Position numbers and translations under genes: made by a program | Notes under the pieces: model-generated | What the model saw: the letters and a program-made list of their open reading frames with translations, nothing else | Databases searched by the model: none | Told to the model about the DNA's origin: nothing | DNA from: Octopus vulgaris | Lineage: Eukaryota | Length of the DNA stretch: 64,000 nucleotides | Assembly: GCA_951406725.2 (NCBI GenBank) | Contig: OX597828.1 | Location: 49,290,001-49,354,000, forward strand | Direction of reading: 5' to 3' | In this document: piece by piece, positions 3,866 through 36,061 of the stretch | Layout: each line of letters opens with the position of its first letter | How positions within the stretch are numbered: position 1 is the stretch's first letter

Positions 3866-5143
3866 AAGTATAACAACCCATCAGCTGGTCAGCTCCTGTC
3901 AAACCATCCAACCCATGTCAGCATAGAAAATAGACATTAAATGATGATGATGGCATACCCCCACCCACCCAAAAGAAGGAAAGACAAAGTTTATGTAAAG
4001 TAACAAGACCGATGGCTATGTTACACAGTTTACAGTGGCACAAAACCAGACGTGGCACGTGTAGTAATTATGTCAATGGTGTGTGTGTGTGTTACAAGTG
4101 AACGTTGTTAATTCATTCTTAACGACCCAAAACATCACCAGTGGACACAGTTCAAACTATTTGTGAAACATCACACATGATTCTCCCTGGTGTTTCCATG
4201 ACAACAGAAATGATGAGTGTTTGATAAATATTAAATTGTAAAGATGAAGAATTTCTTTCATTTCCAGAGATGTGATGGGAGAGCATTCTCCTCAATTATT
4301 CATGCAATGCTTGGAGAAGTTGAATTTGAAATGTCACTTTATACTTCGGTTATTCCACAGACATCTTGATATGGTAAATTGCAGAGGAATTCTACACTTG
4401 CTGTAATTCCATTTCACAGCAGCGGATATTGTTAAATATCATCGACAATTTTCAGTTCCTCAGAGAGTTCACATTAAGAATTACTATCCTATGTATTTCG
4501 TGTTTGTCTCTGCTTTGCCATAAAGTCAAAACTCATTCCCATCAACTCCAACCACCACCACCACCACCATCACCACTACTACTACTACAACTGCCGCCAC
4601 CGCCACTGATGGTCTGAATGTGACAACAAAAATAGATTGATTTATTGGTTTGTGCCATCTGGCAAAAGCTAAGCTTCTGATGAACAGAGACAGCTAAGTT
4701 GTTTGGTAACCTCTCCACTGCCACCATCACCAACAACACTGCCACCACCACCACCATACATGTTATGTTTGAATGCAATCTAACAAGGTGATACCCTGTT
4801 AAACCCCCACTACAATTTTTTTTTTTATATATCTCTGAATATTTTACAATGCCAGTTTTTAAGCAACAGTTTCATTCCGTGAACACATCTAAAATATTTA
4901 ACCACAAATACTTAACTAAACCTACCCAATTAAAGACATTTAACCAAAAATATGTAACTAAAACTAACCAAAAATGCTTAACTAAAAATGTTGAACTAGA
5001 AAAACTAAACTACCTCTAGTTAAGTATTTATTAACTATTTTAACTGGAAATACTTAACTAAAGCTACAGACTGACTTTTAACCCTGTTTAAGTGTTTTTC
5101 TGTGAGAAGCTAATAGTGAAATTAAAAATAAAACAGCAGTTAC

Positions 5144-5227
5144 CTGGGTGGGGCCCAATCATGTTTTGTAGCATCTAGTAGCGTTCCGACATACGTTTTC
5201 CCTCTCCATGTGACGTTGATAACAAGG
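5144..5227 (-). CDS. ZNF608: Next coding exon of the same gene; 5' edge and acceptor disrupted in this sequence
   Basis: 5226 to 5144 translates [28 protein letters not shown], the direct continuation of the family motif ([29 protein letters not shown]). Donor CAG|GTAACT, phase 2. No in-frame AG upstream; the bases completing Gly-Val are missing. Confidence 0.93.
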
Positions 5228-5955
5228 CTAAGCCATTAGCCAAGGGAGCTAACAATTCTGCCAGCTCACCATGTTGCTGATCTAGTAAATATAACATTAT
5301 TAGACTGTAATAACAACAACAAGAATTACTAGAAATAATGGTTTCAAATTTTGGCACAAGGCCAACAATTTTGGGGAAGGGGGGCAAGTTGATTACACCA
5401 ACCACCCCCTGCTCAACTGGTACTTATTTTATTGACCCCGAAAGGATGAAAGGCAAAATCAACTTCAGCGGAATTTGAACTCGGAACGTAAAGACTGATG
5501 AAATGCCACCAAGCATTTTGCCCAGTGTGCTAACGATTCTGCCAGCTCGTCACCTTTAATTGGTAGAAATAATGGTAAATGTTACAACATGCTGCTAAGC
5601 CATTAGCCAAGGGAGCTAACAATTCTGCCAGCTCACCATGTTGCTGATCTAGTAAATATAACATTATTAGACTGTAATAACAATTACAAGAATTACTAGA
5701 AATAATGGTTTCAAATTTTGGCACAAGGCCAACAATTTTGGGGAAGAGGGCAAGTTGATTACACCAACCACCCCCTGCTCAACTGGTACTTATTTTATTG
5801 ACCCTGAAAGGATGAAAGGCAAAATCAACTTCAGTGGAATTTGAACTCGGAACGTAAAGACTGATGAAATGCCACCAAGCATTTTGCCCAGTGTGCTAAC
5901 AATTCTGCCAGCTCGTCACCTTTAATTGGTAGAAATAATGGTAAATGTTACAACA
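5227..5955. repeat. Tandem duplication, two ~367-bp units, each carrying a minus-strand family B SINE
   Basis: Units start gctaagccattagccaaggg at 5227 and 5594; only a few differences. Confidence 0.95.
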
Positions 5956-6504
5956 GTTGGTAGAGATAAAGACAGAAGATTGTACTAATTGGCAGAAATA
6001 ACCCGAGCATTATAAATTGTCAGCAAAGATGTGTTGTAATGGAACTAGACTTCCAACCTGATAGATCTGATTAAAGATTGATGTTGTTGTTGTTGTTGTT
6101 GCTAAGCTTCAACTTCAGATCAGGTACATACACACACAATTAGCCTTCCAGCTTCTGGATTTAGTGCTTAATGCATCAAGTATTTAACTTACAAAAAAAT
6201 AAATAATCCTTAATGAAATTCAATTGTTACAGTTGATCTGTTTTTATCTTAAATTGTTTATAAATACATCTTAATTAGCTGAATAATTACTACACAATAA
6301 TTAATGACGAGGACAAATGGAGAGAATGTTGCTGATATTAGCAAGAATATTGGTTTCAAATTTTTGTACAAGGCCAGCAATTTTAAGGGAAGTGGGCTAG
6401 TTGGTTTATTTTATCAACCCCCAAAGGATGAAAAGCAGTTGACTTCAGTGAAATTTGATCTTGGAACCATAAAGACACATGAAATTCCACAAAGCAATTT
6501 TAAC

Positions 6505-6630
6505 CAGAAACACTGCCAGATCAGACTGGAGCCTGGTGCAGCCTTCTGGCTTCCCAGATCCCCAGTCGAACCGTCCAACCCATGCTAGCATGGAGAACGG
6601 ACGTTAAACGATGATGATGATGATGATGAT
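6505..6630 (+). mobile_element. Family E 3' end
   Basis: ccaacccatgctagcatggagaacggacgttaaacgatgatgat. Confidence 0.8.
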
Positions 6631-7580
6631 GTGTTAACTATTCTGCCAGCTCGCCACCTTAGCAAGAATTTTGATGATATAAGGTTGTTTATTGCAACAA
6701 CACACACAACAGGGATTAAAGAAGTCAGAATTCCACATTGGAATTGCAACGGAAGACCTGAATTTTCAATTATTATTTCTTATCCGCTGTCTATGCTTCA
6801 CTGCCATGCATCATCACACAAGCATCACATATAAATCTCCTACATTCACCATCTATTTTTCACTACCACATACCACTGTGCACACACACACACACACCTC
6901 CTACCTGCTGTCCCCTTACAATCACAGTCCCATATCAATTCCCTCTCATTCTAAAAGGACAGATTCTTTGTTGCTACTGAATCCTGTTCACTGCACAATG
7001 CCACTCTCTTCTAAATCCATCTGCCTCAGCCGTCTCCACCATCACGACCATCCATTAAAGCCATCCCCGTACTAATTATGTCACCTAGGTAACAAGACAT
7101 CTCATTAGTCCCCAGTGCGCATTTTACTCTGCCTCTACATTACTACACAGCTTAAGTAGGTACACACACACACAAACATGCAAACACACACATATTTGTG
7201 TGTGTGTGTGTGTGAGATAGATATATAAATAGAAAGGGAGGTGTGTACACACACACACAAATAAAATAACATATTATACACACAGACACACACACTCTCG
7301 CACAAATGTGCTTATGTAAGTAAATATTTTTGTTGAGCATGTATACACTCAACGTTAATATGTAAGATATTTATGCATGGGTCACAACATATGTATGTCC
7401 CCAGACACACAGACACACACACATGTATGTATAATCAATCATCCAATGACAGCTGTGATAGAATATTAAACACACCTCCAGATACTCTCAGACACAGTGT
7501 CTTGTTAGCATGAGAGAGCAGACTAGAAATCACCACATCTATTATAGATAACATATATGCATAAAACAAAAGGCTGAGTT

Positions 7581-7621
<41 letters not shown>

Positions 7622-7805
7622 CATACACACACAAACATACACACACACACATACACACACAAACACACACACAATGTGGTTTGCTAACATAATGAGAAAC
7701 TCTGTTTATGATTTCCTGATCAGTGATTTTAAACCCCTACTGCAGGGGTTTTTGTAGCTGTAAATGCCGGAAATATTCACCTCTACACAGGTACGCACAT
7801 GATGC

Positions 7806-7840
<35 letters not shown>

Positions 7841-8099
7841 CATGTATAAGAGAATATGGAAGCACATAAGCATGTGTAATTTATTTGTAGCCACAAGTTC
7901 TCATTCAGCAACTCTAATTATTTGCGAGACGAGGTATGAAGTGATGTGACTAACGATCAAGGAATAAATAGCACAACAGTAGTGTGTGTGTGTGTGTGTG
8001 TGTGTTAGAAGGATAGAAAGAGAGAGAGAGAAAGAGAGAGGCAGTAGTAATGAGAGCTCAAGGAAGCAGTAGATAATATTAAATGTCTGCTTTTGACAG

Positions 8100-8195
8100 T
8101 TAAGACTCCACCTAGCCCCTAATGTTATGTCACCACCACCGCCATCACCACGGGTTAAGGCTCCACCCAGCCCCTAATGTTACATCACCACCAAC
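8100..8195. repeat. Short direct duplication (~55-bp period)
   Basis: ttaag.ctccacc.agcccctaatgtta..tcaccacca twice. Confidence 0.8.
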
Positions 8196-8423
8196 ACCGA
8201 ATTACTGTACTATTTATCTGTGATAAAGTTGTTATTGTTGTTGTTGTTGTCGGTTAAGGACCAAGCTGCTGCCTGTTGTTACACTCTGGCATAATAACAG
8301 CATTACTTCAGCCTCCTGAAAGGGGAACTGGTAGCAGCAGTGGTGGTGGTGGTGGTGGTTGTGATGTAATGAAGAACTGGTAGCAGTTCTAAGTGGGGTT
8401 GTGGTTAAGATAATGGTCATTCT

Positions 8424-8584
8424 GGCAGGAGTGGCTGTGTGGTAAGTAGCTTGCTAACCAACCACATGGTTCCGGGTTCAGTCCCACTGCGTGGCATCTT
8501 GGGCAAGTGTCTTCTGCTATAGCCCCGGGCCGACCAATGCCTTGTGAGTGGATTTGGTAGACGGAAACTGAAAGAAGCCTGTCG

Positions 8585-8615
<31 letters not shown>

Positions 8616-8834
8616 TTGTATGTATGTGTTTGTCCCCCTAGCATTGCTTGACAACCGATGCTGGTGTGTTTACGTCCCCGTAACTTAGCGGTTCGGCAAA
8701 AGAGACCGATAGAATAAGTACTGGGCTTACAAAAGAATAAGTCCCGGGGTCGATTTGCTCGACTAAAAGGCGGTGCTCCAGCATGGCCGCAGTCAAATGA
8801 CTGAAACAAGTAAAAGAGTAAAAGAAAAGAGTAA
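8424..8834 (+). mobile_element. SINE family A, full length, young
   Basis: Near-identical to 27770-28180 and 63466-63886; CpGs retained. Confidence 0.92.
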
Positions 8835-8869
8835 TTACAACTTCAATCTATTTGTTACTTTCTAATCCA

Positions 8870-9545
8870 CTGCAGACAACCACCTTTCATCCTCCCAGGG
8901 TTGATAAAACTAAGTACCAGTTGAGTACTGGGGTCAATGCAATCGATTACTCCTTCCCTCCAAATTCCAGGCCTTGTGTCTACAGCAGAAAATATCATCA
9001 TCGTCGCTGCCGCCGCCACCATCAACATTATTATTATTATTAAAGAGGTGAGCTGGCAGAATCGTTACCGCACTGGGCAAAATGCTTAGCAGCATTTTGT
9101 TCGTCTCTACATTGTGAGTTCAAATTCCACCAAAGCCAACTTTAACTTTCATCCTTTTGAGGCCGACAAAATAAGTAAGTACCATTGAAACACTAGGGTC
9201 AACGAAACCAACTAGTCCCTTCCCTCAAAATTTCAGGCCTTTAGTCAAAAGGACTGTTATTACGTTTATATATTTGTTTTGCAAGAAGGCGGCGAGCTGG
9301 CAGAAACGTTAGCATGCCGGGCGAAATGCGTAGCCGTATTTCGTCTGCCGTTACGTTCTGAGTTCAAATTCTGCCGAGGAAGACTTTGCCTTTCATCCTT
9401 TCGGGGTCGATAAATTAAGTACCAGTTACGCACTGGATCCAATGTAATCGACTTAATCCATTTGTCTGTCTTTGTTTGTCCCCTGTGTTTAGCCCCTTGT
9501 GGGTAGTAAAGAAATATATATATGTTTGTTTTGCAAGATTTTTGA

Positions 9546-9581
<36 letters not shown>

Positions 9582-10305
9582 TGTTATTATTTAGACAGTG
9601 AGCTGGTAGAATTGTTAGAGCACCAGGTAAAGTGCTTAGCAACATTTCGTTCATCTCTACATTCCAAGTTCAAATGCTACCAAGGCTGACTTTGCCTTTC
9701 CTCCTTTCAGGGTCAATAATGTATAGTACCAGTTAACTACTGGGGTCAATGATGTCGATTATGCCTCTTCCATCAAAATCATTGGCCTTGGCTAAAAATT
9801 AGAAAGAATAATCATTGTTACTATTATTATTAAGGTGGCGAGCTGGCAGAATTGTTAACACGCTGGACAAAATGCTTAGCAGCATTTAGCCCATCGCTAA
9901 GTTTCTGAGTTCAAATTCCACAAAGGCTAACTTTGCCTTTCAACCTTTTGGGGTCGATAAACTAAGTACCAGTAAAACACTATGGTGGTGAAGGTGGTGG
10001 GGTCGATGTAATTGACAAGTCTCTTTCCCTAAAACATTTCAGGCCTTGTGTCTTTAGATGAAAAGATTATTATTATAATAATAATTATTATTAAGGCAGC
10101 AAGCTGGCAGAATCGTTAGCACACTGGGCTAAATGAGTAGCGGGATTTCGCCAGTTGCTACATTTCTGAGTTCAAATTCTGCTGAGGTCAACTTTGTCTT
10201 TCATCCTTTCAGAATTGATAAAAAAAGTACCAACTGAATATAATTGACTCGTCCCGTCTTCCAAAATTCCTGCCCTTGTGGAAAAATTTGAAACCATTAT
10301 TATTA
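8870..10305 (+). mobile_element. Head-to-tail cluster of about six family B SINEs
   Basis: agctggcagaa-type heads near 9050, 9293, 9600, 9840 and 10102 plus a headless copy near 8880; separated by (ATT)n. Confidence 0.88.
9287..9520 (+). mobile_element. SINE family B, young long-tail copy with TSD
   Basis: TSD tttgttttgcaaga at 9273-9286 and 9525-9538. Confidence 0.92.
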
Positions 10306-10590
10306 TTATTCTTGTTGTTATTGACAACTTATATTGATCAGTTATTTCATAGGAATTTAATGAGCTCTCTTTCAGAAGCATTTTCCCCTTTGCTATTTTT
10401 GCTGTTTTTAGGGTTTCCAAAACCATCAACACCATCATTGTCATTTAATATCTATTTTAATAAACGATGAACACAATTACTACTAACATCAAACAATATA
10501 TACAATCTACATACACGCACACATGTATATCATGTGTATGTAGTAGCATCTACAGCAATGATTTATACATTATGTGTGTGTGTGTGTGTA

Positions 10591-10864
10591 TGGAGGTGCA
10601 ATGGCCCAGTGGTTAGGTCAGCAGACTCGCGGTTTCGATTCCCAGACCGAGCGTTGCGAGTGTTTATTGAGCAAAAACACCTAAAGCTCCATGAGGCTCC
10701 GGCAGGGGGTGGCGATCCCTGCTGTACTCTTTCGCCATAACTTTCTCTCACTCTTTCTTCTGTTGGCCTGCTCGCTTAGCCAGCGAGGTGGCGTCATTTG
10801 AAGGCTAAAGCAATGCGAAGCGCATTGTGACCAGTGATGTGTAGCAACATCTGATAGCCTGCTC
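10591..10864 (+). mobile_element. SINE family C (tRNA-Arg-like head; possibly octopus OR-type)
   Basis: tggaggtgcaatggcccagtggttagg...gactcgcggtttcgattccc with A and B boxes; head shared with 21518-21900. Confidence 0.85.
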
Positions 10865-11485
10865 ATAAATAAATATATACATATATATATATATAAAAGG
10901 ATGTTGCAAGGTATTTATGAGATCATTTCAGCAGGCAGCTATAAATGGCTGATGATTTAACATAATGCTTTGTGGAATACAGCAAACTTAGAACTTTCTT
11001 GTTTCTCTTTCAGGTGTATTGACAGCATCCAGAAAGATTCCTACCTGAGACAAAGAAATGAAAAGGCATGCTGTGCTTGAGCCTCTAGCTAGCCACTAAC
11101 CACAGTTTCATGGCCAGTTCCTTGAAGGTGAAACAAGTCCTTCTCACATACAGGCTCAGGAGCACAAAGCAGAAAAAACAGAAAAAAAACTGGTGGTGAT
11201 GTCTCTGGTGAGGGATATATTATCATCTGCGGCAAAGGGACAAAAACACTTTCAGCGATCAGACATCATCAAGACAGCCGAGTTTGTCCAGCAGAAGCAA
11301 GAATGAACAACAACTCCTGGTTGCTCGATGGAGGTCATTGTTAAGCACTTAGAAGTGAGAGAATCCACTATCATAAATATATTGTACAAGGAAGTCAGGT
11401 ACAAATCCTAAGTAATGGCCTAGGGATAATTCATGCACAGAAAGGGCTAAGATAACCATATAAGAAATGGTCAAAGTGTATACTG

Positions 11486-20063: not shown

Positions 20064-20220
20064 CATTCTCTGTCTCATGCCAGACAATACCCTCTAATGT
20101 AACACTAGTTCCAGGTTCACATGGTCCAAGACACTCCGGTTCTGTGATAACCCCAACACTGCAAGTATCTGTCCCCATATCATGTAACTCTGGTTGCATT
20201 GGTGAACATGCTGCTTCAAC
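20064..20220 (-). CDS. ZNF608: Internal coding exon of a ZNF608/ZNF609 (brakeless/scribbler)-like gene, 157 nt, phase 0 to phase 1
   Basis: Manual translation [53 protein letters not shown] matches the conserved family motif ([28 protein letters not shown]). Acceptor aatttgttttaccattgcAG, donor G|GTAAGC. ZNF608 versus ZNF609 cannot be distinguished; probably a single co-orthologue. Confidence 0.95.
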
Positions 20221-31133: not shown

Positions 31134-31314
31134 TGTATTTAGGGTAGTGAGATGCAGTGTGTGTGTGTGTGAAGGTCGAAAGGAAAAGAGTTAAGCACAA
31201 TCTGCTGGATGTGCTTAACAATGAAGAATGAGGCACAGATGAGCTGAGAGAAAAACTGAGTATGAGAGGAATGTGCAGAAAGAAAATAAATGGCTTCCCT
31301 TGGTATGTAGATGT

Positions 31315-31790
31315 TGAGGAGGAAGAGGAGGAGGAGGAGGAAGAGGAGAAGGAGGAGGGTGATGAAGATGATGATGGGGGGGAGGAGGAGGAGTGGAAGA
31401 TGAAGAGGAGGAGGAAGTGGAAGATGAAGATGAGGAGGAGGAGGAAGTGGAAGATGGAGAGGAGGAGGAGGAAGAAGTGGAAGATGAAGAGGAGGAGGAA
31501 GTGGAAGATGAAGATGAGGAGGAGGAGGAAGTGGAAGATGGAGAGGAGGAGGAAGAAGTGGAAGATGGAGAGGAGGAGGAAGTGGAAGATGGAGAGGAGG
31601 AGGAGGAAGAAGTGGAAGATGGAGAGGAGGAGGAAGTGGAAGATGGAGAGGAGGAGGAGGAAGAAGTGGAAGATGGAGAGGAGGAGGAGGAAGAAGTGGA
31701 AGATGGAGAGGAGGAGGAGGAAGAGGAAGATGAAGAGGATGAGGAGGAGGAAGAAGGGGAAGATGAAGAGGAGGAAGAGGAAGAGGAGGT
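31315..31790. repeat. Purine-rich minisatellite, unit gaagtggaagatgga(gag)n
   Basis: About 13 units of 21-30 bp; gives low-complexity ORFs in several frames. Confidence 0.92.
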
Positions 31791-32544
31791 CATTGAAGTT
31801 CCAAGGTATTGATCTGGAAGAAATTAGTGGCAAAGGGAGACTGAAGAATCATCATCATTAACATCCATTGTCCATACATGGGTTGGACGGTTTGACCAGG
31901 GCTGGCAAAGAATTGGTAAGAGCTGAAAACTCAGGAAACTTAAACTTTATATAAAAGAGACGACAAAGGAACACAAGGAGTAGCGGAATTTCGTGCCGGA
32001 GAAGGCCAGACCAATCCATGCCAGCATGGAAAAACCACTGCCAAAATAATTATGACAATATGGATGTATAAATACACATAGACATGTTTTTATACATCAT
32101 TAGCATCATCATTTTAATGTCCACTTTTCCATGTTCAAATGGGGCAGACAGAATTTGTCGAGGCAGATTTTCTATGGCTGGAAGCCCTTCCTGTTACGGA
32201 CCCTCACTTGTTTCTGAGCAAGGTAATATTCTGCCATGGCCAGACATGTTTTCATGGAAGATTGGAAACACAGTACTGTGTGTGTGTACAAGATGGTAAC
32301 GCTCATTTACAACTACCACACAATATGAAGACAAAGAGACAGACAGACACACACACACACACACACACACACGTATATATGACAGTTTGCAAGTACCAAA
32401 TCCACTCACAAGATACTTGTTCAAAGTGTTACACAGTAGGACTGAACCTGAAACCATGCACTCATAGTTCTCAACCACACAGCCATGCTTGTGCATCTTA
32501 TAGATGGATGGATAGATGGATGGATCGATAGATGTGTGTGCATT

Positions 32545-35504: not shown

Positions 35505-36061
35505 TTGGGTTGTCCGGAAAGTTCGTGCCGATTTATAGTAGCTTACCTTTCGACTTATTTTAGAACATGGTTGAGTCCATAAAATAGGATTTGACTACAC
35601 CTCCATTTAGAGCACAGTTTAAGCTATCTTTTCATGGAAGAAAGTTTATGTTCCTATAACCTGTGTAACCCTCTAAAATGGAAGATAAAAAAGTTCATTT
35701 TCGGCACTTGATGCTTTAGGAACCAGACAAAAATTGCTGCAGCTCGGCTAGGATGTGTTACCCCACCTTCCATATTCACCAGTTATTGCTCCTTTGGATT
35801 TCCACTTATTCAGGTCTCTGCAGAATAGTCTTAATGGTAAAAATTTCAATTCCTTGGATGACGTAAAAAGATACCATGATGAATTCTTTGCCATGAAACC
35901 ACCTCAATTCTGGGAAGAGGGTATTTTCAAGTTAAAGGAAAGATGGAGACACATTGTGCAACAAAATCGTTCATATTTGGTTGATTAAAAATGTAATGGC
36001 AAGTATTTATTGAACTTTTTCTTTCCTTTAAAAATCGGCACAGACTTTCCGGACAATCCAA
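35505..36061 (+). mobile_element. Internally deleted mariner transposon (mellifera-subfamily-like)
   Basis: ~30-bp TIRs ttgggttgtccggaaagttcgtgccgattt / aaatcggcacagactttccggacaatccaa, TA on both sides; N-terminal MEDKKVHFRHLML and C-terminal HLPYSPVIAPLDFHLFRSLQNSLNGKNF...ERW (degenerate YSPDLAPSD motif). Confidence 0.92.
35678..35988 (+). pseudogene. Mariner transposase remnant
   Basis: Start MEDKKVHFRHLML* fused to ORF 35755-35988; most of the DNA-binding and catalytic domains are missing. Confidence 0.88.

Follow-up and report, generated by a model that had tools for sequence, protein, structure and literature searches.

The window analysed here is a stretch of 64,000 nucleotides of Octopus vulgaris (assembly GCA_951406725.2, contig OX597828.1, positions 49,290,001 to 49,354,000). 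Its minus strand carries part of a gene of the ZNF608/609-brakeless family, in which a conserved exon (5227-5144) is assembled without its splice acceptor. This break is quite probably a local assembly error, in which the segment holding the acceptor was lost and the second haplotype's copy of the neighbouring DNA was put in. The site is marked by the break itself, by a 98% identical tandem pair beginning on the break base, by other sequence after 5227 in two DNA samples, and by continuity at 11017/11018, the proposed far end of an inversion. Most likely, the gene is intact in the species and the break is an artefact in an ordinary conserved gene, neither an inversion nor a real loss of the gene.

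A conserved exon without an acceptor

Judged by its sequence, the gene at this locus is the single ZNF608/609-brakeless orthologue. A homologue search with the 52-codon frame at 20220-20065 (minus strand) gave 896 protein matches at E up to 0.001, and nearly all named proteins among the 120 matches listed are labelled ZNF608. Using tblastn with three homologues, two exons were located in the window, at 20220-20064 and 5227-5144, showing identities to mollusc and other relatives of 74-94% for the upstream exon and 96-100% for the broken one. The conserved ZNF608/609-Brakeless block, which contains GPCEPG and a further 26 residues, was found across these exons. The downstream exon is a single open frame of 1,427 codons, and its translation contains a C2H2 finger, C-x4-C-x12-H-x4-H, identified by eye; a Pfam scan returned no family for any of four proteins, the homologue P0122 included. 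According to PMC1868043, the co-repressor Brakeless is homologous to ZNF608 and ZNF609, each protein having a single strongly conserved domain and a single C2H2 finger; Atrophin binding and co-repressor activity are known from that paper for the fly and human proteins. The octopus block presumably corresponds to the D2 domain described there. The locus thus shares with Drosophila Brakeless (Scribbler), ZNF608, and ZNF609 the conserved block over two exons and the single C2H2 finger in the next one. Unlike vertebrates, which have both ZNF608 and ZNF609, there is a single gene here, and it is ordinary apart from the break.

The remaining parts of the gene are in place. Exons further upstream are present in the assembly (C15:49405969-49405853 and 49405015-49404884), and the broken exon has one match in it; neither a second intact copy of this exon nor an intact acceptor-exon junction was found elsewhere in the assembly. 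A same-species protein spanning the junction was not found either, the closest matches reaching 94% (upstream exon) and 57% (next exon). As a separate observation, the N-terminal part of mollusc ZNF608 matches at C15:49405853-49405969 and 49404884-49405051, about 800 bp apart, where a 392-codon open frame is reported (L024); the first coding exon is therefore likely much longer than in gastropods and bivalves.

A first-pass annotation, made from the letters of the window, had described a conserved exon deprived of its acceptor in a conserved gene, and all of its statements about the sequence check out. The upstream coding exon (20064-20220, minus strand, 157 nt) has an intact acceptor and GT donor and ends in phase 1, reading AAT G|GTAAGC. 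At the junction, homologues read HETEN/E-G-V-L-V-[IV]-N. The truncated exon (5144-5227, minus strand) retains its donor and lacks the acceptor and its first 4 nt; what is left begins with the third base of the Val codon, continues with 27 residues, and closes with the phase-2 start of an Arg codon. Sequence derived from a short interspersed element (SINE) adjoins it at 5227/5228, and is 80-82% identical to SINE copies elsewhere in the window (9047-9090 and 9836-9880). Within this adjoining sequence (5228-5238, minus strand), a TAG|C at 5230-5227 would shift the frame if used as an acceptor, and an in-frame TAA lies at 5238-5236. Nine AGs would give exon starts between 5150 and 5299. With seven of them, a stop follows in at most 87 codons; the two that keep the frame are cryptic sites inside the exon (5174-5203, minus strand; exon starts 5201 and 5174), either of which deletes conserved residues. 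Skipping the exon was also considered and rejected, as translation, counted from the upstream exon, then stops after 59 codons. Hence, the exon is broken as assembled.

The expected form of the junction can be read from relatives. In 18 metagenome loci, five include both halves with an intron of 60-79 nt between them, and all five start the exon as AG|G[TA]GTN, the acceptor AG placing the exon start 5 nt before the Leu codon. Ten further loci show the first half of the junction only, and the exact exon motif had no match in the metagenome contigs. At the other three loci (L043, L045, and L060) the intron is absent from the junction, which may reflect mRNA-derived sequence or intron loss; L060 sits on a 120-kb contig. 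Eight full-length proteins of relatives cover the junction (P0001, P0002, P0121-P0125, and P0127), with HETEN-A-G-V in seven and HETEN-G-V in P0122. This split points to a tandem acceptor of the NAGNAG type at the exon in a relative. If such an acceptor were common to this gene, the number of absent exon bases would be 4 or 7.

A tandem pair beginning on the break base

The break coincides with a feature that the first-pass annotation does not mention, namely a pair of tandem copies of 363 bp with 98% identity; nor does that annotation note the two cryptic AGs in the exon or the dispersed repeat around 10995-11018. Copy 1 (5227-5589, plus strand) consists of a SINE tail, a spacer, and a SINE, and begins on the break base itself. 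At this first junction (5227/5228), G5227 is common to the exon and to the first base of the copy, a microhomology of 1 nt. Copy 2 occupies 5594-5955 (plus strand). The second junction is a 4-nt spacer between the copies (5590-5593, plus strand), which prolongs copy 2's SINE leftwards and is, for this reason, likely the remnant end of a lost segment; SINE alignments reach 5584-5589.

The copies differ in seven columns, the last of which is 5535/5901, and from 5536/5902 onwards they share an identical suffix of 54 nt. Three of the seven columns are CpG-type transitions, with the CpG decay located entirely in copy 2. This pattern of differences indicates that the copies are real biological variants, and copy 1 is likely the other haplotype's version of copy 2. 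Across 364 kb, no other two-copy tandem of this size reaches an identity of 95%; the remaining tandem repeats comprise minisatellites and one pair of 148 bp. The latter is a direct pair in the downstream intron (C15:49279785-49280162, at the border of L008 and L009), with 96% identity and 82 bp between its members.

Contigs of other samples

Four sequencing runs (X1, X2, X4, and X8) of the 24 listed were compared with positions 4900-11450. The run data consist of contigs, from which rare variants are lost and which can establish that a sequence is present but not that it is absent. X1 and X2 come from organism A; each holds all sampled words and each is flagged as a possible source of the assembly. 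X8 comes from organism C, a relative that is 1.8-3.1% diverged from the window. X4 was guessed to be RNA by the comparison tool, while none of the listed runs is on record as RNA.

On the exon side of the break, an X1 contig (730 nt) and an X2 contig (577 nt) match 4900-5227 with zero differences and then continue with 67 and 94 letters, respectively, that are unlike 5228 onwards. Both overhangs run on unbroken at 5227. The departure is not a masking cut, because the skipped zones are simple repeats and none of at least 12 nt occurs before 6082. The match of the putative RNA contig of X4 (320 nt) is confined to 5144-5227; another 87 letters of the contig lie upstream of it and 149 downstream. 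The contig looks spliced, because its match starts at the donor. As the match ends at 5227 and not at 5228, the base before C5227 is not G in this contig, which fits the Val codon GTC and excludes direct use of the TAG|C, since with that acceptor the G that closes the upstream exon would have carried the match on to 5228.

The tandem pair can be examined in the same way. With words of 31 letters, contigs of a real tandem pair would be expected to break off at 5955; two alleles at 5901 should instead give a contig that starts at 5902 and runs on past 5955. An X2 contig covering 5902-6375 starts on the first base of the shared 54-nt suffix and crosses 5955/5956 unbroken, and an X8 contig covering 5897-6375 likewise crosses this point. 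A contig of X1 holds the variant stretch of copy 1 at 5353-5437 exactly, yet without the junction of exon and copy 1. Since the X2 and X8 contigs cross the end of the tandem and X1 carries the copy-1 variant without the first junction, the data suggest, indirectly through contig ends, that the two copies are two haplotypes of one segment. The first junction is absent from the X1 and X2 contigs and the second from those of X2 and X8, in a comparison of contigs, X1 and X2 being possible sources of the assembly. Depth over 5338-5994 is dominated by SINE contigs.

A probable assembly error and the alternatives

The favoured explanation would account for these observations as follows. The assembly would have lost a segment of at least several tens of bases holding the acceptor, the first 4 nt of the exon, and the nearby intron, and ending in the SINE that supplies, with its tail, the beginning of the tandem unit. 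In its place would stand a second copy of the next 363 bp, likely from the other haplotype, so that the two tandem copies would be alleles. Such an error may have arisen when heterozygous, SINE-rich reads were joined or polished, and the living gene would splice normally to G-V-L-V-I-N. The otherwise intact state of the gene, with its 1,427-codon exon, its upstream exons, and the single match of the broken exon, also counts in favour of an assembly error. The first-pass annotation had likewise put a misassembly forward as a leading option, and its alternative of a small deletion comes close; a deletion is part of the favoured explanation, yet it is coupled to the tandem duplication and is not a simple one.

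The situation resembles the false heterotype duplications treated in PMC9516828, in that a haploid assembly carries two allele-like copies next to each other and the structure of a gene is falsely altered as a result; at one letter that differs between the copies, one sample here seems to be heterozygous. It differs from the duplications described there in its small size (363 bp), in having no N gap, and in being coupled to the loss of unique sequence. Because of this loss, the result here would be a false exon break and not the false gain of a gene or exon.

Several points weigh against an assembly error. The overhangs of 67 and 94 letters are known by their length and their lack of fit to 5228 onwards, and the form of the lost acceptor is a prediction. 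The best 15 of 3,746 joints are all SINE joints, and loose ends are likewise swamped. Rare variants are dropped from contigs, and the comparison covers four of 24 runs. X1 and X2 are possible sources of the assembly; if the assembled animal is neither, it may carry a private allele. The microhomology, 1 nt at the first junction and perhaps up to 6 nt at the second, also fits real replication slippage. Finally, there is no N gap at the site or in 364 kb. A gap is a typical, not a required, sign of such errors; according to PMC9516828, gaps often flank false duplications.

The strongest alternative, though clearly the less probable one, is a real, recent, and private loss-of-function allele, heterozygous or somatic, in which the acceptor segment was removed by a template switch that also added a second version of the following 363 bp, copied from the homologous chromosome. 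A coupled deletion and duplication with microhomology is the footprint of a replication-based rearrangement, and this combination is seen at the site. Besides the missing gap, both the loss of variants from contigs and the uncertain identity of the source animal leave room for such an allele. The likeness to fork stalling and template switching (FoSTeS) or microhomology-mediated break-induced replication (MMBIR) includes the coupling of deletion and tandem duplication and the short microhomology at the junctions. A fresh event of this type normally gives identical copies, while the copies here differ by 2% and neither junction occurs in the contigs compared. A switch between homologues is needed to explain this divergence, and a knockout allele persisting long enough for a drift of 2% is unlikely. 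Furthermore, both letters found at the 5535/5901 difference seem to be present in X2, which is a possible source and yet has neither junction. Such alleles should also be rare, given that brakeless alleles are lethal in flies (PMC1868043).

An older, real tandem duplication, with only the deletion of the acceptor segment being an error or a new allele, is improbable. The divergence of 2%, which is close to the 1.8-3.1% by which organism C differs from the window, and the confinement of CpG decay to copy 2 would suit it. On the other hand, the unbroken passage of the X2 and X8 contigs across 5955/5956 speaks against a real pair, and a separate deletion would need to have its end no more than 4-5 nt from where the duplicated unit begins.

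It is more doubtful still that the assembly is correct and that splicing is rescued, either by a micro-exon of 3n+1 nucleotides together with the TAG, an alternative raised in the first-pass annotation, or by an in-frame cryptic AG in the exon. The in-frame AGs at exon starts 5201 and 5174 are available, and with a micro-exon of 4 nt the RNA match would likewise stop at 5227. The micro-exon route fails in X1 and X2, whose DNA differs from the assembly right after 5227 and has no such TAG beside the exon. The internal AGs are not used in X4, as this putative RNA contig includes 5202-5227. In addition, the relatives with introns of 60-79 nt (5/5) have their AG directly 5 nt before the Leu codon.

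A supposed displaced acceptor that belongs to a repeat

An inversion of about 5.8 kb (5228-11017), proposed in the first-pass annotation to have moved the acceptor and its GTGT to the plus strand at 10995-11017, has next to no credibility and is refuted at its right breakpoint. The letters at 10995-11018 are as described, a pyrimidine tract followed by CAG|GTGT, but they are not the displaced acceptor of the exon. The attraction of the proposal is evident. With 14 of 15 pyrimidines, the site ranks first among the 107 YAG|GTGT sites counted in 364 kb, and inverting the segment would rebuild GGT GTC CTT. Sites with at least 12 of 15 pyrimidines number four in this range, a density of roughly one in 90 kb. 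As candidate places for a displaced acceptor segment, the three besides 11011 are found 34-46 kb ahead of the window, within the next exon or past it. At the left breakpoint, X1 and X2 do depart from the assembly at 5227/5228, and the letters of their overhangs could in principle be this inverted sequence. Regarding a strand-switch joint of 5227 with 11017, the best 15 of the 3,746 joints all lie in SINEs.

The right breakpoint lies inside an old dispersed repeat (10905-11400, ends approximate, plus strand), which has 71-78% identity to five copies, contains the acceptor look-alike at 10995-11018, and is not part of the gene. A search of the assembly with 10900-11200 gave six matches, namely the locus itself and copies on C1, C4, C5, C6, and C14. 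All five copies align across query position 118/119, corresponding to 11017/11018, and realignment is continuous on both sides. In the 40 nt to the left of this point, the copies match the window in 20-29 columns, compared with 4-9 for the flank predicted by an inversion. In the 40 nt to the right, four of the five match in 25-31 columns, and the fifth (L007), whose match ends at 11024, in 14. The copy on C5 (L003) keeps CAGGTGT and the next 8 bases. A 657-nt contig of X8 is collinear with 10904-11450, passing straight through 11017/11018, at a depth of 43.9, the level of its other unique contigs. The region is thus collinear in the related organism, an outcome that the first-pass annotation had itself named as one that would contradict its inversion, and an inversion would have had to rebuild an old repeat to the base. 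Four open stretches of the repeat at 10.9-11.4 kb gave no Pfam family at E up to 1. These short stretches bear some likeness to a decayed DNA transposon, with a possible mariner-like helix-turn-helix.

Other features of the window

Two further features were noted at a distance from the break. At 31232-31858, about 600 bp of a purine-rich degenerate repeat have long open frames on both strands, poly-Glu/Asp-like on the plus strand; this is likely a simple repeat. At 35752-35985, a stretch of 78 codons bears a likeness to the C-terminal end of mariner transposases.

Implications

No literature was found that combines Octopus, genome assembly, and ZNF608. As a probable artefact in an ordinary gene, the break has very little biological weight, and its consequences concern annotation. 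In gene models based on this assembly, a neural co-repressor gene present in one copy will be truncated, frameshifted, or split in its most conserved block, and the break might be mistaken for the loss of a gene in an octopus. The site at 10995-11018 illustrates well how a persuasive "displaced splice site" can prove to lie within a repeat. Were the allele real, it would be a rare captured rearrangement between haplotypes and a knockout of the only ZNF608/brakeless gene in the reference animal.

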